Source of the DNA: Bacilli bacterium
GTDB lineage: Bacteria; Bacillota_I; Bacilli_A; RF39; UBA660
Reading direction: 5' to 3'
DNA: 64,000 nt
Assembly (NCBI GenBank): GCA_017626405.1
Contig: JAGAIS010000002.1
Span: 62,189-126,188 of the forward strand
Every line of letters begins with the position of its first letter. The first letter of the stretch is position 1. Both the position numbers and the translations under genes were made by a program. Shown piece by piece: positions 13,827 to 29,322 of this stretch. The notes beneath the pieces are model-generated. The model saw only the letters and a list, made by a program, of their open reading frames with translations. It searched no databases and was not told the origin of the DNA.

Positions 13827-13857
13827 AAAATAGAAAGATTAACAATCTTTCTATTTT
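13827..13857. terminator. bidirectional rho-independent terminator
   Basis: ATAGAAAGATT-AAC-AATCTTTCTAT perfect 11-bp stem flanked by an A-run and a T-run, between convergent genes. Confidence 0.6.
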
Positions 13858-14885
13858 AATTCTGTATAAATTGATTTATTGAAAGTATGATCTTTAATAT
13901 CATATTTTTCTAACATACTAGTATCAATCATAAAAAATTTATGCTCTAGGTAATTCTTTGATTTATCTTCAACACTCAATGGATCATCCCAAGTTAAGTC
14001 GATATGTTTCCAAGTATCATCTATATTTACTACATTCCAAACATGAGTATTGCTAGCTACTTTAAAATTTCTTATACTCAACTTATCTAATAATATTGCC
14101 ATGGCATCAGTATAACCAGAACATATTGCATATCCCTCAAAGAGAGGACCATTTGCTTTAGATGCTTGATGAGTAGTTGCTTGAGATGCTTTTAAATTGT
14201 CATATTCATTCTTTAGCTCTTTATATTTATTTGAATCTTTATCTAAACTTTTTAATTGCTTTTCATATTCGCTTAGTTTTAAATTATATGCAGCTAATTC
14301 ATTTTCATAGTTTTCATCATATCTTGTATTATTTATTATATAGTCATGGAAAGCATAGATAATATCTTGATTTTTCATATCTGTAGTTACTATTTCTTTC
14401 CAAATAGAATCAATTTTATTGGTAATATCTAATATATCCTGCTCACTATAGAGTCTAGTAATATTTATTGTTACCTCGCCAGCCGTATCATATAATACAT
14501 CAATTGATTTAAAATTGTTATATGGCGAAACATAATTGCCAATAGTAGTTAATATTTCAACATTTTCAGGGCTGCTAATTTTTTCAACATCGCTTATACA
14601 GTCTTGATATTCACTAGGACAGTAGAATGTGAAAGTCTCATATCCAGCATCCATAGTAGTATAAAATATATTTAATAAATCTTGATAGTTATATGGTACA
14701 AAATCTTTAGATATTTGTACAAAATCATAATCAATTTCTTTTGCAAATCTATTTTTTTCTGGTATCGATATTGTAGGAGTAGAATAGAAATACTTTGCTA
14801 AGTGTTCAGAAATAGCATCTAGTTTATAAAATACGATCCCCGATATAATAATGCATAATATAAAAGTTAAAATACGCTTTTTCAT
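13851..14885 (-). CDS. membrane-anchored transglutaminase-like cysteine protease-fold protein
   Basis: N-terminal TM helix. Cys-His-Asp core: YAICSGYTDAMAILL ... NTHVWNVVNIDDTWKHIDLTWDD. Confidence 0.75.
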   Translation of the reverse strand: MKKRILTFILCIIISGIVFYKLDAISEHLAKYFYSTPTISIPEKNRFAKEIDYDFVQISKDFVPYNYQDLLNIFYTTMDAGYETFTFYCPSEYQDCISDVEKISSPENVEILTTIGNYVSPYNNFKSIDVLYDTAGEVTINITRLYSEQDILDITNKIDSIWKEIVTTDMKNQDIIYAFHDYIINNTRYDENYENELAAYNLKLSEYEKQLKSLDKDSNKYKELKNEYDNLKASQATTHQASKANGPLFEGYAICSGYTDAMAILLDKLSIRNFKVASNTHVWNVVNIDDTWKHIDLTWDDPLSVEDKSKNYLEHKFFMIDTSMLEKYDIKDHTFNKSIYTELK

Positions 14886-15198: not shown

Positions 15199-15416
15199 TA
15201 TTTTTCGCTCCTTCCTTAAATACATATTAGATTTTATCAAATAATTACCTAAAAATCAAATATTTTTAGTAAAAATATGCAAAATATTAAGATTTATAGT
15301 TATTATTATATATAAAACAATAATTATAACCAAAATACATAGTATATAATATTAATTATTTATAATTAAATATAATTAACTAAAATTAATAAATATCAGT
15401 TTTAGTTAATTAAAAC

Positions 15417-15445
15417 TTGCAAATTATGCAAATTTGTTATATTAT
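15417..15445 (+). promoter_or_regulatory. candidate sigmaA promoter of the CYTH/radical-SAM operon (TTGCAA-17-TATTAT)
   Basis: TTGCAA at 15417-15422, 17-nt spacer, TATTAT at 15440-15445. A direct repeat TGCAAAT x2 (15418-15424, 15427-15433) overlaps the -35 and spacer. Confidence 0.4.
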
Positions 15446-15466
15446 ATACGACCAAGAGGTGGAGTT

Positions 15467-16039
15467 ATGGGAATTATTGAGTATGAGTGCACAATATTAG
15501 ATATTGATTCACAAGACTTTATATCCAAATTAATATCTCTAGGGGCAAAGAATAAAGGGGAATTCTTTCAACGTAGATATGTCTATGATTTCAATCCAGT
15601 TAATAAGAATAAGTGGATAAGACTTAGAACAAATGGTACAAAGACAACTATTTGTATCAAGGAAATTAAAAATCGTGAATTAATTGGTGGAACTAGTGAA
15701 ATTGAAGTAGAAGTTGGAGACTTTGATAAGGCTAATGAAGTATTAGAAGGACTTGGATACAACCATCGAAATTATCAAGAAAATGTCAGAAGGAGCTTTG
15801 AACTTAATGGAGTTTCAATTGACATCGATTCATGGCCAATGATTCCCGACTATGTTGAAATAGAAGGTTCGTCTGAAAGTGAAGTATTAGATACTTTAAA
15901 ATTATTAGGAATTGAAAAAGACAGGATTACAACTTTGGATGTAGAATCTATATATAATGATATATATGGCATTGATTTACTTGCAATAAAGGAGTTAAAG
16001 TTCGATGAAGCTTTGTTGGAATCTAACAGCACTTTGTAA
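15467..16039 (+). CDS. CYTH-domain (triphosphate tunnel metalloenzyme / class IV adenylyl cyclase-like) protein
   Basis: N-terminal IEYECTIL (ExE motif of CYTH), IRLRT, ICIKE, SEIEVEV, C-terminal VSIDIDSWPMIPDYVEIEG pattern. ATG 15467 follows a GAGGTGGAG RBS. Confidence 0.8.
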   Translation: MGIIEYECTILDIDSQDFISKLISLGAKNKGEFFQRRYVYDFNPVNKNKWIRLRTNGTKTTICIKEIKNRELIGGTSEIEVEVGDFDKANEVLEGLGYNHRNYQENVRRSFELNGVSIDIDSWPMIPDYVEIEGSSESEVLDTLKLLGIEKDRITTLDVESIYNDIYGIDLLAIKELKFDEALLESNSTL

Positions 16040-16814
16040 TGAAAATTGTGTATATTGCTTTCGTGAATTATTGGAAAGACCTTTAGATTTGGAAGATAAT
16101 TTAACGATTTTAAAAAAGTTAAAAGCAATAGGAACAACATCAATTACTTTTGCTGGAGGTGAACCTTTATTATATCCGGGTGTAGATATATTAATGAGAG
16201 AATGCCATAATTTGGGAATTACGGCAAATCTTATTACAAATGGAAGTTTACTTACTAAGGATAATTTGGATATGTACTTATCTAATGTAACAAAGTTAAC
16301 TTTCTCGATTGATTCGCCAAACAGTTTTATTAATGAGACAATTGGAAGAGGCGCTCACCATTATGAACATATCAAAAAGTTATTGCCATATATTAAAGAA
16401 AAATATCCTAATATAATATTAGAAGTTAATACTGTTGTTACTTACGATAACAGTGAAGAAATGGATTTTATGTTTGAAGCTTTAGGTAGTGAAATATCAT
16501 TTTATGGATTAAAAAAGTGGAAGATAAGTAGATTTTGTCCTTTAAGAGGTTATGCCAAAGAAAGAAAAAATCTATTATCAGTTCCCGATCAAGTATTTGA
16601 AAGTATAAAAGATAATTATTCAAATAAAAGGGCTTTTTTTCAAATTCAAGTGAGGGATTTAGATGCTGTTGAAGAGAATGTTATTATTTCTCCTTCCGGC
16701 AATATGAAAAAAGCATTTAATCAAGAAGAGTATACGATTGTATCTGACTTAGGTACTAAAGATACGGAAGAAATAAAAAGATTAATAAGAAAAGATGGGG
16801 GTCTATATGTATAA
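16005..16814 (+). CDS. radical SAM enzyme, viperin-like (candidate prokaryotic viperin)
   Basis: CNENCVYCF cluster motif, ITFAGGEPLL, ITNGSLL, FSIDS..ETIGRG, EVNTVV..NSEEM and KKWKISRFCPL parallel the viperin motifs in the same order. AAGGAG RBS lies inside the CYTH 3' end, with a 35-nt overlap. Radical SAM call about 0.9; viperin subfamily about 0.6. Confidence 0.65.
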   Translation: MKLCWNLTALCNENCVYCFRELLERPLDLEDNLTILKKLKAIGTTSITFAGGEPLLYPGVDILMRECHNLGITANLITNGSLLTKDNLDMYLSNVTKLTFSIDSPNSFINETIGRGAHHYEHIKKLLPYIKEKYPNIILEVNTVVTYDNSEEMDFMFEALGSEISFYGLKKWKISRFCPLRGYAKERKNLLSVPDQVFESIKDNYSNKRAFFQIQVRDLDAVEENVIISPSGNMKKAFNQEEYTIVSDLGTKDTEEIKRLIRKDGGLYV

Positions 16815-17700
16815 TTCAAATTTAAATTTAAATCTTTATAAAACATTTTATGATGTTGCTCAATATGGATCAGTTTCTACTGCTTCCAAAAACTTAAATA
16901 TATCTCAACCGGCAATATCTCGTTCGATAAAAAAACTTGAGGAAGATTTAAATGTAACGCTTTTCTATCGTACATTAAATGGTATGATTTTAACAGAAAA
17001 GGGAAAAGAACTACTCAGTTATGTTGAAGAGGCATGCAATAGTTTGCGAGTTGGCGAAAGAAGTATGATGGAAACTAATAATTTGATAAAAGGTAAATTA
17101 TCTATTGGTGTGCCATCTCATATAGCATCATTTTATCTATTCGATAAAATAAGAAAATTTCACGATGAATATCCAAATATTGAAATTTCTGTATTCTCAC
17201 GTTGTACTGCAGAATTAATTAAGTTACTAGAAAACCATGAAATTGATATTGTAATTGATACTTCTCCAATATGTGGTAACGAGAAAGAACTACATATTGA
17301 AGAACTAATTCATGTAAATCATATCTTCGTTAAAAGAAAAGAAGATAATGTAAATGCAACTTGTCTAAAAGATCTAGAAGATTATCAAGTAATTCTGCCA
17401 GTATCTCGTAGTTCTCATAGAAAAAGACTCAATGAAGTTGCAAATGAAAATCATGTAAGATTTAATAAAGTTATCTCAATTGAAAATTCAGAAACTATTA
17501 GGGAAGCTGTACTTCAAGGAAATGGCGTTGGTTATATTCTTGAAGGATTAGTACAAAAAGATATCGATGCAGGAATCTTAGAAAAAGTTGATATTAAAGA
17601 AGAATTGCCTTATGTTACTGTTAATTTAGTTTATATCGATAAATACTTGATGAATGCTCCAAAAGTATTCATCGATAAGTACTTAAAAAGTGCTATATAA
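16807..17700 (+). CDS. LysR-family transcriptional regulator
   Basis: N-terminal wHTH SVSTASKNLNISQPAISRSIKKLEEDL plus a C-terminal substrate-binding domain of about 200 aa. ATG 16807 overlaps the stop of the preceding gene. Confidence 0.9.
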   Translation: MYNSNLNLNLYKTFYDVAQYGSVSTASKNLNISQPAISRSIKKLEEDLNVTLFYRTLNGMILTEKGKELLSYVEEACNSLRVGERSMMETNNLIKGKLSIGVPSHIASFYLFDKIRKFHDEYPNIEISVFSRCTAELIKLLENHEIDIVIDTSPICGNEKELHIEELIHVNHIFVKRKEDNVNATCLKDLEDYQVILPVSRSSHRKRLNEVANENHVRFNKVISIENSETIREAVLQGNGVGYILEGLVQKDIDAGILEKVDIKEELPYVTVNLVYIDKYLMNAPKVFIDKYLKSAI

Positions 17701-18230: not shown

Positions 18231-18704
18231 ATGAATAATATAAAAAAACTATCAACATATATATTTCTCTTAATATGTTTACTTTTAATCTTATTTGGAA
18301 TTTTTGTTCTTCATTCAAATAAAAATCTTAAAAGCAAAGTTGATTCTGCTGAAAACTTTGAACTTATTTTTTATTATAAAGAAAAAAGAGGAAAAGAATT
18401 GATAATTGATAAAGAAAACGGATTATATAATTACAATATTTATGTGGTAAATGGAACGGTAGATATTGTTATAGATAAGAAGAATTATTCGCTAGAAGAT
18501 GCATTAAATAACAAAAGAGTAACAATGGAGAAAATTATTGAAAAGGCAAAAAAAGATATTGATAATCCTATATTCTATGATGATGGAGGAAGCACTGAAT
18601 ATCATTATCGAGATTATACGATTATAAAGAAGGATACTATTGATGGCGATAGTGATGTATATATAGGAGACAGTAATTTGTCTTTGCATAGTTTAAATAA
18701 TTAA
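18231..18704 (+). CDS. membrane-anchored hypothetical protein
   Basis: AAGGAG RBS, N-terminal TM helix (IFLLICLLLILFGIFVL), no recognisable domain. Confidence 0.6.
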   Translation: MNNIKKLSTYIFLLICLLLILFGIFVLHSNKNLKSKVDSAENFELIFYYKEKRGKELIIDKENGLYNYNIYVVNGTVDIVIDKKNYSLEDALNNKRVTMEKIIEKAKKDIDNPIFYDDGGSTEYHYRDYTIIKKDTIDGDSDVYIGDSNLSLHSLNN

Positions 18705-20905: not shown

Positions 20906-20937
20906 ATGTATTAAATTTGATATAGGAGGCTATGGTT

Positions 20938-22542
20938 ATGATGAAAATAGAATTGCTTGGCGCAATAGATTACGACAAGTTGAAAAATGAATTAAATAAA
21001 AGGAATCAAGAAAATGTCGATGACATCGTCGAATATATGCGAGAATTAAGTGAATTGAGCAGTGCTGATGATAAAGTTTTTAAAAAACTTGAGAGCAAAT
21101 TAAAGAAAGTGAATAGTGCAACAGGAAAAGATTTAATGGACTATGTTCAATATTTAGAAGATAGTGGAAGAGCAGAGAAAGTTGCTACTGCAGGAAGATT
21201 ATCTCGTTTTGCTGGAGACATCTTTGAAGTATTAGATATAACGGAAAACAATACTTTTGAAGAAAATATTAATTTTGCAAAAAGAGTTATTAATATGGGA
21301 CATGATTCAATAACAGATCACGATTATCTAGTTTTTGCAATTAAAGATGTATCACCAGTTATTGAGCAGACTATAATTGCTGAGAGATTCTCTAGTTTTA
21401 CTATAAAATCGCGTAGAGAAGTAGATTTTTCTAAAGTTGGTTTTTATACTCCCGATTTCCATGATGAAAATGGAGTATTGCTACCAAATAATATGAATGC
21501 AAGGTTAGATTATCAAAAATATATGACATCATTATTTGTTAAATATTCAGAACTTGAAAGTCTAGGTCTATCTAAGGAAGATGCGCGTTTTGTCTTGCCG
21601 TACTCATATAATTCTAATATTATTATGGGGATTGATGCTCATACTTTAAAAGATATGATAATTAAGTTTACAAAGACACATTTAGCTAAAATTCAAGAGT
21701 TGAGAGAATTTGGAGAGAGATTATGTGACATTGCAAGTAAGCATTGCCCATATATCTTAGATGAAATTTATGATGCTAGGGTTTTAACTACTGATCCAGT
21801 AAGTGATTACTTGGAAAGCAAAGAATTAAAAAGAGAATATAAAGTGTTAGATTCAGTTAAAATGTTAAATGCTTCTAACAGAGTTGATGATACAATTCTT
21901 GTTGCTGCAATTATGAAAAGATATCAATATGATAGAGAAAAAGCAATGAAAGTATTGAAAAAAATAGCAAAAGAAGATCCAGAATTCAAAAGTATCTTAA
22001 TGCGTAAAATTGTCTTCGAAGGAGATAAATCAGAACTCGCTCAAGTTAATTTTGAATTTCAAATCCCATTATCTTTTGCCGTATTAACTCATTTGACTAG
22101 ACATCGTACTCATCACTTGTTAGTTCCGGAGTTTGCCCCTAATATTGATTTAAAACAATATAAGGTTCCACCAAAAGCAAAAATTATTGCTCCGGGAATG
22201 CTTGAGGAAGTTTATGATAAAAACTATCAAATGTATTTAGAATTTAAAGAAAAATATGGAGTTTGTGATGAAGACTTAATCTATTTCACTTTATCGGGAA
22301 ACATGGTTAATGTTATTTCTAATATGGACGGAAAAACAGTTGAGCATATTTTAGGCCTTCGTGAATGTAGCAAAGCACAATGGGAGACACAAGCTATGGC
22401 TCACGGAATACATAGAGAAATTGATAATCTCCCTCATGCCGAGATATACTCAAGCATTTTGGGCTCTACATGTATGACTCAGGGTTATTGTAAAGAGGGT
22501 AAAGAATCTTGCGGAAGATTATTACAAAAAAAGGATAATTAG
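20938..22542 (+). CDS. tandem ThyX-domain protein (FAD-dependent thymidylate synthase-like, double length)
   Basis: Two ThyX-like halves. First: MGHDSITDHDYLVFAI...AERFSSFTIKSRRE...EDARFVLP. Second: FEFQIPLSFAVLTHLTRHRTHH...LGLRECSKAQWETQ. ATG 20938 is well spaced from an AGGAGG RBS. Confidence 0.7.
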   Translation: MMKIELLGAIDYDKLKNELNKRNQENVDDIVEYMRELSELSSADDKVFKKLESKLKKVNSATGKDLMDYVQYLEDSGRAEKVATAGRLSRFAGDIFEVLDITENNTFEENINFAKRVINMGHDSITDHDYLVFAIKDVSPVIEQTIIAERFSSFTIKSRREVDFSKVGFYTPDFHDENGVLLPNNMNARLDYQKYMTSLFVKYSELESLGLSKEDARFVLPYSYNSNIIMGIDAHTLKDMIIKFTKTHLAKIQELREFGERLCDIASKHCPYILDEIYDARVLTTDPVSDYLESKELKREYKVLDSVKMLNASNRVDDTILVAAIMKRYQYDREKAMKVLKKIAKEDPEFKSILMRKIVFEGDKSELAQVNFEFQIPLSFAVLTHLTRHRTHHLLVPEFAPNIDLKQYKVPPKAKIIAPGMLEEVYDKNYQMYLEFKEKYGVCDEDLIYFTLSGNMVNVISNMDGKTVEHILGLRECSKAQWETQAMAHGIHREIDNLPHAEIYSSILGSTCMTQGYCKEGKESCGRLLQKKDN

Positions 22543-27804: not shown

Positions 27805-29322
27805 ATGAAAAAAATATTAATAACTGGGGGTTCTGGACAGTTAGGATACGATATATATCGAGAATTAAATAAGAGATATGGTGATGATGTAACTATATTC
27901 ATGCCAAATCATGCAGTATTAGATATTACGGATGAAAAAAGTGTAAAACAATTAATTGATGAGTTTAAACCTGATGTTGTATTTCATTCAGCTGCTTATA
28001 CTAAAGTTGATGACGCTGAAGATAATCCTGAAGTGTGTTTTAGTACTAATGTTTCAGCCACTCAATATATTGCTGAGGCTTGTTCAAGTATTGATGCAAA
28101 GTTAATCTATGTAAGTTCCGATTATGTATTTGATGGTAAAAAGGGAAGTCCATATACTGAGGGAGATATGACTAAACCTATTAATACTTATGGTAAAAGT
28201 AAGGCTATTGGGGAATTAAAAGCACAAATTAATCCTAATACATTTGTTGTAAGAACTTCTTGGGTATTTGGTATAAATGGGCGTAACTTCGTTAAGACAA
28301 TGTTGAATCTAGCTGAAAGTCGCGATAAATTGACAGTTGTATGTGATCAATTTGGAAGTCCAACTTATACGGTTGATTTAGCAAGATTACTAGTTGATAT
28401 GAGTGAGTCAGACAAGTATGGAATATATCATGCAACTAATGAGGGATTTACTTCGTGGTATGAATTTGCAAAAGAAATATTCGAAGTTAATAACAAACAA
28501 GTAATAGTTGAAGCTGTGACGAGTAAGGAATATAAAAGCAAAGCAGCAAGACCGATAGATTCTCGTTTATCAAAACAACATTTAGTTGATTGTGGATTTG
28601 AACCACTTCCAGATTATCATGATGCTTTAAAGAGATTCTCTAGTGAATTAGAAGCATACAAAGAATATATATCTACTTATAATATTGATTCAGATATTGA
28701 ATTTGCTAATGGAACAAAGGCGATTGCGACAAATTTAAAAGATTGTTATATAATCAATCCTCGAACTTTTGGTGATGCTAGAGGTTCATTTGCTCCAACG
28801 TTTATGGCTGAATATATGGAAAAGTTAGGATTTGGCAATAGTGTTCAAGATAATAGAAGTATTTCTCATAAGGGAGTATTTAGAGGATTACATTTTCAAA
28901 AAGAACCATATACTCAATCTAAGATTGTATATGTTGATAGAGGTGCTGCTTTTGTAGTCGTAGTAGATATGCGTGTTGATTCACCAACTTATCTTAAGAG
29001 TACATCACTTTTACTAACGCCATTTGATCCTGAGGATCCAAAAAGTGGTCTAGAATTATTCGTTCCAAGAGGATTTGCTCACGGTTATCTAGCACTAAAA
29101 GATAATACTTGGTATATATATAAGATAGATAATGATTATATGCCATCAAGTGAAGGTGGAGTATTATGGTGTGATCCATCGTTAGATATTGATTGGAAGC
29201 GTCTATTTGCAGAAGGATGTATAGATGAAAGTACTCTTGATTTAAAAGATGCCGATAGAAATAGACCTAAACTAGACGGCAAGGAAGAATACTTCCATTA
29301 TAAAAAATTAGAATTAAAATAA
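27805..29322 (+). CDS. rmlD-rmlC: fused dTDP-4-dehydrorhamnose reductase (RmlD) / dTDP-4-dehydrorhamnose 3,5-epimerase (RmlC)
   Basis: N-terminal half: ILITGGSGQLG, YVSSDYVFDG, YGKSK, RTSWVF (RmlD). C-terminal half: GDARGSF, RGLHFQ, SKIVYV, VVVDMRVDSPTY, PRGFAHGY (RmlC cupin). Confidence 0.85.
   Translation: MKKILITGGSGQLGYDIYRELNKRYGDDVTIFMPNHAVLDITDEKSVKQLIDEFKPDVVFHSAAYTKVDDAEDNPEVCFSTNVSATQYIAEACSSIDAKLIYVSSDYVFDGKKGSPYTEGDMTKPINTYGKSKAIGELKAQINPNTFVVRTSWVFGINGRNFVKTMLNLAESRDKLTVVCDQFGSPTYTVDLARLLVDMSESDKYGIYHATNEGFTSWYEFAKEIFEVNNKQVIVEAVTSKEYKSKAARPIDSRLSKQHLVDCGFEPLPDYHDALKRFSSELEAYKEYISTYNIDSDIEFANGTKAIATNLKDCYIINPRTFGDARGSFAPTFMAEYMEKLGFGNSVQDNRSISHKGVFRGLHFQKEPYTQSKIVYVDRGAAFVVVVDMRVDSPTYLKSTSLLLTPFDPEDPKSGLELFVPRGFAHGYLALKDNTWYIYKIDNDYMPSSEGGVLWCDPSLDIDWKRLFAEGCIDESTLDLKDADRNRPKLDGKEEYFHYKKLELK

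Follow-up and report, generated by a model that had tools for sequence, protein, structure and literature searches.

What does a radical S-adenosylmethionine (SAM) enzyme resembling the antiviral protein viperin do in an operon that also encodes a triphosphate tunnel protein and a transcriptional regulator? The question is raised by a 64,000-nucleotide stretch of contig JAGAIS010000002.1 (Bacilli bacterium, assembly GCA_017626405.1; the window, at its full length of 64 kb), in which three head-to-tail genes on the plus strand (positions 15467 to 17700) encode a CYTH protein, a viperin-like radical SAM protein, and a LysR-type regulator. In databases, these products are named only "CYTH domain-containing protein," "radical SAM protein," and "LysR substrate-binding domain-containing protein." A previous sequence-only reading of the window had described the three genes as overlapping, and the coordinates, overlaps, and embedded ribosome-binding site that it gave are all present in the sequence (Table 1). 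The ATG of the radical SAM gene lies 35 nt inside the 3' end of the CYTH gene and is preceded at 10 nt by AAGGAG, and the LysR ATG overlaps the radical SAM stop codon (ATGTATAA). The 35-nt overlap between the CYTH and radical SAM genes was found again in a distant locus (L086), and the layout shows the three genes to be translationally coupled and cotranscribed. In the reading that we favor, with a probability of roughly 0.45, the operon is one self-regulated module under LysR control that transforms a nucleotide.

In searches with hidden Markov models (HMMs), the radical SAM protein scored 76 bits against Pfam Radical_SAM. The comparison with other radical SAM families for which the sequence-only reading had called turned out in favor of viperin, the best family being NCBIfam viperin_w_prok (NF038283) with 131.7 bits and the next family reaching 55.9 bits; the PADLOC models of prokaryotic viperins (pVips) gave about 131 bits. 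The best sequence matches in the PDB were viperins as well. With the AlphaFold2 (AF2) model of the protein (predicted local distance difference test score [pLDDT], 90.5), the top 18 PDB matches in Foldseek were all viperins (E values of 7e-16 to 1e-12), including 5VSL, 6Q2P, and 9DFW, at template modeling (TM) scores of 0.73 to 0.80, followed by SkfB, SuiB, and MoaA. Profile alignment to solved viperins upheld the motif likenesses that had been quoted: with the viperin family (SAND; NF038283, TIGR04278), the protein shares the partial TIM barrel fold with its C-terminal extension, CxxxCxxC and the SAM-binding GGEP, a single cluster, and, in unchanged order, the motifs TNGSL, S-x-DS...GRG, N-[ST]-V, and WK. 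The sequence also bears out that a second, C-terminal Cys cluster of the MoaA type is missing, and neither a SPASM nor a twitch domain was found in the protein. A MoaA-type GTP 3',8-cyclase was rejected, since there is no second [4Fe-4S] Cys cluster and TIGR02666 (MoaA) scored 52.4 bits, far below its cutoff of 284. By sequence and predicted fold, viperin is clearly the closest known family.

The earlier description of a viperin-like enzyme thus stood with regard to family and fold, but the scores and pocket residues set a limit to it. Judged by its sequence, the protein is not a bona fide viperin and falls short of membership: it scored below the curated cutoffs of both viperin models (131.7 versus 180 bits for NF038283 and 45.6 versus 450 bits for TIGR04278), whereas control pVips reached 301 (P0113) and 251 (P0119) bits in the same search. 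The clade of the window protein, together with a penumbra of relatives, scored 110 to 176 bits on the viperin model. In a rough neighbor-joining tree, bona fide viperins formed a cluster (78% bootstrap), and the window protein fell into a separate group, which we call the C-W type. An exhaustive search yielded 150 representative clusters at an E value of ≤1e-30, about 100 of which carry C-W-x and not N-x-H in strand beta1; N-x-H was found in 16 of the 18 sampled sequences of the viperin cluster that cover this region, and the window protein has C4-W5-N6. The module appears to be part of a sister family of the antiviral viperins.

Residues of the substrate pocket were mapped by alignment with true pVips and a fungal viperin, and their roles were drawn from a 2026 preprint (10.64898/2026.09.10.750538) and a 2023 preprint. 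In 25 clade members, C11, C15, and C18 of CxxxCxxC and G51-G52-E53-P54 were invariant, and the window protein has an intact SAM/[4Fe-4S] site. Also clade invariant were C4, W5, N6, R115, N142, K173, P179, and R181, and E140 and C178 were nearly so (90% or more). Four viperin pocket residues are kept, namely, the Arg of GRG (Arg115), Asn142, Lys171, and Lys173. The phosphate ligands of human viperin are Lys119, Lys219, and Arg244 (10.64898/2026.09.10.750538); at these positions, the window protein has Ser46 (variable), Glu140, and Lys171, respectively. Where viperin has Tyr301 (in "DSY"), the clade shows Asn or a gap. The C-terminal RxxxY clamp (Arg346 and Tyr350) is essential in viperin, mutants of the human and fungal enzymes being devoid of any synthesis of 3'-deoxy-3',4'-didehydronucleoside triphosphates (ddhNTPs) (10.64898/2026.09.10.750538). 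In the tail of the window protein (..KDGGLYV), the GG and Tyr are kept, and in place of the clamp Arg the members of the clade have D, L, or M; the RxxxY tail is missing entirely in fusions of the radical SAM protein to LysR. Most of the approximately 100 C-W-x clusters retain the Lys, Arg, and Tyr ligands, and by these alignments the eroded phosphate pocket is a trait of the window clade and of some LysR-linked forms. As the protein fails the curated cutoff and is without residues that nearly all sampled bona fide viperins keep, ddhNTP synthesis cannot be assumed.

These data bear on the view that the enzyme is a genuine pVip producing ddhNTPs as antiphage chain terminators, with the CYTH protein as an accessory that processes or detoxifies them and LysR merely as an expression switch. 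The viperin fold and the pVip models as best match (131 to 132 bits, far above other radical SAM families) favor this view, whereas the score under the 180-bit cutoff, compared with 251 to 301 bits for true pVips, the lack of N-x-H, Lys119, Lys219 (Glu), Tyr301, and the clamp Arg, and the position outside the viperin cluster (78% bootstrap) count against it, as do the housekeeping locus and the vertical inheritance described below. Taking these together with the genomic contexts of relatives, we consider it quite unlikely.

The CYTH protein scored 29.5 bits against Pfam CYTH (cutoff, 23.2). Its AF2 model (pLDDT, 91.3) retrieved the archaeal triphosphate tunnel metalloenzymes (TTMs) PH1012, Pfu-838710, and SaTTM as the top Foldseek matches, the class IV cyclases ranking after them, and on the whole it resembles archaeal TTMs more than thiamine triphosphatases (ThTPases). 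With the TTMs (SaTTM being Saci_0718) and thiamine triphosphatase, it shares the eight-stranded tunnel fold, the N-terminal ExE, RxR, and the ExE of beta8; E5, E7, E131, and E133 are conserved, and W50-I-R52-L-R54 is at least 90% conserved. Unlike the TTMs, it has a conserved C-terminal extension of about 50 aa (TTLDVxSIYxxIYGID..IKELKF), and at the fifth residue of ExExK the window lineage has Thr instead of Lys, whereas relatives have Arg or Lys. SaTTM, a triphosphatase, cleaves off the gamma-phosphate; its Ala54 is the counterpart of W50 in the alignment. The W/YxRxR position is occupied by a Trp, as in ThTPases, and this Trp may correspond to the aromatic residue that in ThTPases stacks against the organic part of the substrate. 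Class IV cyclases are marked by HFxxxxExExK, a small residue for the first Arg of xRxR, and Ala for the second Glu of beta8 (Vogt 2021). The CYTH protein has no HF before ExExK, only "MGII" preceding E5, and it keeps both Arg residues of W50-x-R52-x-R54 and both Glu residues of E131-x-E133. A class IV adenylyl cyclase (CyaB) was therefore rejected, none of the three motif marks being present and TIGR00318 (CyaB) scoring 35.6 bits against a cutoff of 57.95. With no HF and with R52 and E133 retained, the protein is predicted, from sequence and model, to be a hydrolase of an organic triphosphate with an intact two-metal site. Among the roles proposed earlier for the CYTH partner, cyclization is disfavored by the lack of the cyclase motifs, and trimming or detoxification is favored by the hydrolase motifs.

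The regulator matched HTH_1 (69.7 bits) and LysR_substrate (108.7 bits) in Pfam and only generic LysR relatives in the PDB. The sequence-only reading had treated it as a mere overlapping gene, which does not do justice to its distribution: a LysR orthologue was adjacent or fused to the radical SAM protein in all sampled clade members. In L017 and L018, LysR is fused to the C terminus of the enzyme, and a search with a fusion of the L017 type yielded about 45 protein clusters of such fusions (556 to 564 aa, 35 to 100% identical to L017), one of them from Christensenellales; a second group of fusions is 603 to 614 aa long. In relatives fused to a receiver (REC) domain, LysR lies immediately upstream, within a mobile element. 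LysR is thus the tighter and most constant partner of the radical SAM protein, and CYTH is frequent but dispensable; since LysR is always present, often fused, and adjoins REC-fused relatives too, the radical SAM-LysR link is the core of the module. As the sequence-only reading had supposed, no paper in the literature searched describes the pairing of CYTH with a viperin-like enzyme, and none describes the module of all three or the fusions to LysR.

Fusion to LysR could also mean that the radical SAM protein has no small-molecule substrate and instead modifies the LysR protein or gates it as an iron-sulfur, SAM, or redox sensor; the peptide-modifying SkfB and SuiB are its next structural neighbors after the viperins. 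We give this very little credence, because Asn142, Lys173, and the Arg of GRG, which are substrate residues of the viperin type, are clade invariant, the SPASM/twitch domain is absent, the family-wide association is with nucleotide enzymes, and many relatives are without any LysR.

The window clade was found in 19 loci (L001 to L019; 35 to 86% identity), 17 of which share a syntenic arrangement of recD2, a 344-aa gene, rpsT, [CYTH], radical SAM, and LysR. CYTH is missing from L011 to L016 and L019, where only the radical SAM and LysR genes occur. The adjacency of CYTH, conservation of which in related genomes was a point to be checked, is maintained across deep branches: the trio, or CYTH with a radical SAM-LysR fusion, occurs in at least eight contexts (the rpsT site, L017, L018, L086/88, L139/140, L144, L145/146, and L149), and in L144 the radical SAM protein and LysR are 32% and 44% identical to those of the window, respectively. 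At the rpsT site of sister lineages, the module is present, CYTH-less, or absent, and some sister lineages of the same order and of equal divergence are without it there. In L011 to L016, identity to the window was 38 to 46% for the radical SAM protein, 63 to 69% for LysR, and 57% for RecD2. The notion that the enzyme evolves much faster than all its neighbors was only partly true, as it is the fastest only in the distant CYTH-less loci and evolves more slowly than the 344-aa neighbor in close relatives. Three contigs (L001, L002, and L004) are labeled "uncultured Muribaculaceae"; they are probably misbinned, since they are syntenic with Bacilli metagenome-assembled genomes and encode proteins 51 to 96% identical to those of the window.

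Relatives occur beside enzymes of nucleotide and nucleoside metabolism. L018 and L086/88 add a CMP-kinase-like protein, a metallo-beta-lactamase (MBL) hydrolase, and a second CYTH protein, in a gene order that differs between both, and in L086 the CMP-kinase-like protein is fused to a second, nonviperin radical SAM protein. This extended cluster spans positions 997 to 3729 of L018 and 7359 to 10139 of L086, its hydrolase being MBL/Apyc1-like and its second CYTH protein CyaB-like; as a seven-gene unit (with the CMP kinase, second radical SAM, MBL, and second CYTH genes), it is not found in the window. L087 is the L086 locus broken into many short open reading frames (ORFs) by frameshifts, either a pseudogenized copy or the result of long-read assembly errors. 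The partners in L017 are a Vut_1 transporter, a phosphoribosyltransferase (PRTase), guanylate kinase, and Ham1. Elsewhere, NUDIX, GrpB, and nucleotide pyrophosphatase occur as neighbors or fusion partners of C-W-type relatives, others are accompanied by a PfkB kinase and nucleoside deoxyribosyltransferase, and the relative in L143 has a thymidylate-kinase-like protein, SIR2, dCMP deaminase, and MazG around it. In P0435, a bona fide viperin of the N-W-H type, which retains every phosphate ligand, is fused to a Ppx/GppA terminal-phosphate hydrolase, so phosphatase partners do occur with true viperins. Further fusions within the viperin family join the radical SAM domain to a PfkB kinase (P0313), BpsA_C (P0382), and REC (P0356). 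Mobile or defense-like contexts were seen among relatives in L081-85, L143 (SIR2), and L145 (KwaA nearby). Three loci of closely related genomes (L091, L139, and L147) form a hot spot, sharing downstream genes (for a 192-aa protein and CitMHS) at 80 to 91% identity and differing in the module carried: CYTH-HD-LysR-CYTH in L091 (HD being a phosphohydrolase), CYTH-viperin-like-LysR in L139, and a fusion of LysR to a MoaA-like protein followed by CYTH in L147. The shared downstream genes of L139 and L147 are not found in the window.

Several of these contexts belong to the case for a genuine pVip, namely, the CMP-kinase-like gene in the extended clusters of L018 and L086, the phosphatase partner of the N-W-H viperin P0435, and the mobile or defense-like surroundings of L081-85, L143, and L145. 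Others would suit a housekeeping or sanitizing role, in which the module deals with an unusual nucleotide by salvage, repair, or clearance or synthesizes a cofactor or modified nucleoside, and LysR is an ordinary regulator of the pathway. The housekeeping neighborhood and native composition of the window copy, the salvage and house-cleaning partners in L017, the NUDIX, MazG, PfkB, and nucleoside deoxyribosyltransferase partners elsewhere, and the wide occurrence of CYTH alone are what such a role would predict. It is harder to reconcile with sister lineages of the same order that do without the module at the same site, with the faster evolution of the enzyme (38 to 46%) than of LysR (63 to 69%) and RecD2 (57%) in L011 to L016, with the variation of the enzyme at the hot spot, and with the mobile-element contexts of some relatives, and we regard it as decidedly improbable.

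The promoter TTGCAA-17 nt-TATTAT that had been proposed in front of the operon is present and is footprinted in 11 loci, although the consensus match alone was not significant (40 promoter-like sites in 4 kb versus 31 ± 5 expected). Across 11 orthologous loci, ACTTGCAAtTTATGCAAAAaaGTTATATTATAT was conserved in intergenic DNA that had otherwise diverged on its flanks, a 33-nt block from −35 to −10 being kept and the DNA further upstream not, and a 16-nt promoter core occurred in 10 of the 149 fetched loci, only at the promoter position. Two dyads accompany the promoter. In the upstream one, the blocks TTAAC ... ATAnATAT ... GTTAA were conserved in the 11 orthologous loci, which suggests a candidate LysR recognition site. 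The other, TGCA-N5-TGCA, covers one whole TGCAAAT repeat and the beginning of its second copy; it had 3 matches in 64 kb versus 0.49 expected, and of the 11 orthologous loci with CYTH, 10 have it at this position. It is a candidate LysR operator. CYTH-less loci have a TATAAC-N5-GTTATA dyad in its place. In L011 to L016 and L019, a conserved leader of about 50 to 60 nt (GGGG.ATT..GTCTGT.AGGAGG) lies between −10 and the radical SAM start and may be a CYTH remnant or a regulatory RNA.

Conserved operator-like dyads, together with enzyme-LysR fusions in both orders, fusions of the radical SAM protein to REC that adjoin LysR and a stand-alone REC protein, and long-term retention in small genomes at a fixed site, are consistent with a signal synthase and its receptor. 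The radical SAM protein would then make a nucleotide-derived ligand for LysR, which would control the operon and possibly other genes, with REC gating in relatives and CYTH degrading the signal or its precursor. We hold this to be unlikely, since no other LysR target is known, the LysR-to-radical SAM fusion of L147 carries a MoaA-like and not a viperin-like protein, the swapping of HD, MoaA-like, and viperin-like enzymes at the hot spot suits diversifying effectors better, and the module is absent in sister lineages.

In a self-regulated nucleotide-transforming module, as we favor it, the radical SAM protein would, in the manner of viperin, act on a nucleotide at its ribose by means of a 5'-deoxyadenosyl radical. 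With C-W-N for N-x-H, Glu for Lys219, and the clamp Arg missing, the phosphate tail would be recognized differently, and the product may differ from a ddhNTP. The CYTH protein would take the terminal phosphate off an organic triphosphate, most simply the substrate or product of the radical SAM protein, and its activity would set the phosphorylation state that accumulates or detoxify the product. LysR would bind a nucleotide related to the radical SAM reaction and autoregulate the operon via the dyads. As to purpose, a conflict-related one, such as an inducible antimetabolite or antiviral nucleotide, would seem most likely. The exchange of enzymes at the hot spot, the patchy distribution, and the mobile surroundings of some relatives make us lean towards conflict or defense, whereas the vertical housekeeping setting and the coupling to LysR and REC lean towards signaling or metabolism.

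A number of observations weigh against this reading. Glu at the Lys219 position is specific to the clade, other LysR-linked members having K, D, R, or Q there, so the argument from a lost gamma-phosphate contact is not general; the wider statement that Glu at this position typifies all LysR-linked forms was ruled out by the table of the 150 representatives. The roles of the pocket residues rest on sequence alignment, and the neighbor-joining tree is rough and has no outgroup. CYTH stands alone in related genomes (L089/90), its family is larger than that of the radical SAM protein (778 matches), and it was lost from one sub-branch; its role may be general and its tie to the radical SAM protein loose. 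The module has been passed on vertically in the window lineage, at a housekeeping site, its composition is native to the window, and no defense genes lie near the trio in the window; the caveat of the sequence-only reading about a housekeeping neighborhood was correct. Viral contigs held only distant radical SAM proteins (27 to 36% identity) and no close relatives, for which reason a phage-borne origin was rejected. LysR regulators are, to our knowledge, not typical of defense systems, and we know of no family member with a known product, substrate, or phenotype.

A wider proposal, possible but doubtful in our view, is that the viperin scaffold has a second functional branch, the C-W-type proteins, with a different radical chemistry on the ribose, whose product is read directly by the attached LysR and which, with the dedicated triphosphatase, would be a new kind of one-component nucleotide sensor/effector module for inducible immunity or signaling in gut Firmicutes. 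In such chemistry, Cys4 or Cys178, invariant in the active site, might donate a hydrogen atom back, so that a 4'-epimer or a 3'-deoxy nucleotide would be formed in place of a ddh-nucleotide.

Compared with known systems, the window module resembles viperins and pVips in that its relatives associate with nucleotide kinases and differs from them in that its own partners are LysR and a CYTH hydrolase, not kinases only. As in the pairs of viperin with CMPK2 and of pVips with kinases, the radical SAM gene is in tight linkage with the gene for a partner that handles nucleotides; unlike in these pairs, the partner is predicted to remove a phosphate where a kinase adds one, and the kinase of L086 is fused to the second, nonviperin radical SAM protein and not to the viperin-like one. 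In the "trigger enzymes" BirA, NadR, and PutA, an enzyme is joined to a DNA-binding regulator and its substrate or product state can control transcription; here, in contrast, a complete LysR (HTH and effector domain) is joined to a radical SAM enzyme. Antiphage effectors that deplete or modify nucleotides include dCTP deaminase, dGTPase/HD, and SIR2. The swapping of HD, viperin-like, and MoaA-like enzymes at the hot spot, and the SIR2, dCMP deaminase, and MazG flanking L143, are reminiscent of these, and the window copy differs in lying outside a defense island.

The window is low-GC chromosomal DNA (GC content, 26.7%), nearly all long ORFs of which are on the plus strand. The public loci nearest to it are from metagenome-assembled genomes of uncultured gut Bacilli or Erysipelotrichales-like bacteria. 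The GC content at third codon positions was 0.15 to 0.24 for the trio versus a window mean of 0.17, and this native base composition ruled out a recent horizontal transfer. No Rfam family was found at the gathering threshold anywhere in the 64 kb, and no intrinsic terminator was found 3' of LysR. The 344-aa protein encoded at positions 13851 to 14885 (minus strand) is N-terminally anchored and always adjoins rpsT in the window lineage and in distant relatives; it gave only a subthreshold MapZ_EC1 match. A 157-aa ORF at 18231 to 18704 has an N-terminal hydrophobic segment and had no homologue in the 149 fetched loci and no Pfam match. Further downstream, a 536-aa ThyX (flavin-dependent thymidylate synthase; 20932 to 22542) contains two Thy1 stretches, is about twice the usual length, and is kept in related loci at 42 to 48% identity, and one ORF (27805 to 29322) combines RmlD (dTDP-4-dehydrorhamnose reductase) and RmlC (3,5-epimerase) domains.

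Table 1. Positions in the window of the three genes and of the sequence elements associated with them (RBS, ribosome-binding site)
Feature	Position	Strand	Remarks
Upstream dyad TAATTAACTAAAATTAATA / TATCAGTTTTAGTTAATTA (TTAAC...GTTAA)	15373..15412	+	Inverted repeat I3, 89% complementary; centered ~40 nt upstream of −35
Sigma-70-type promoter TTGCAA-17 nt-TATTAT	15417..15445	+	9/12 consensus matches; footprint in orthologous loci
TGCA-N5-TGCA dyad (T-N11-A, LysR-box-like)	15418..15430	+	Overlaps −35 and spacer
RBS GAGGTGGAG of CYTH	15456..15464	+	GAGGTG invariant in alignment of 11 loci
CYTH/triphosphate tunnel metalloenzyme ORF	ATG 15467 to stop 16039	+	190 aa; Pfam CYTH
AAGGAG RBS of radical SAM gene, within CYTH coding sequence	15988..15993	+	Read from sequence
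Viperin-like "C-W-N type" radical SAM ORF	16005-16814	+	269 aa; Pfam Radical_SAM
LysR-type regulator ORF	ATG 16807 to 17700	+	297 aa; HTH_1 and LysR_substrate

Viperin is among the few immune enzymes common to bacteria and humans, and its known output is one class of chain-terminating nucleotides. The present analysis points to a sister branch of considerable size, C-W-x being found in about 100 of the 150 closest representative clusters; part of this branch has a remodeled phosphate pocket and is tightly linked, to the point of gene fusion, to LysR and a predicted triphosphate hydrolase. If a new nucleotide analogue is made by the module, it would be a natural antimetabolite and the product of a new radical SAM reaction; if LysR reads the nucleotide of the radical SAM protein, the two would form a new regulator-ligand pair and a way in which bacteria control a dangerous nucleotide-modifying enzyme. 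Uncultured gut Bacilli and Clostridia with small genomes, in which very little gene function is known, commonly carry the module.

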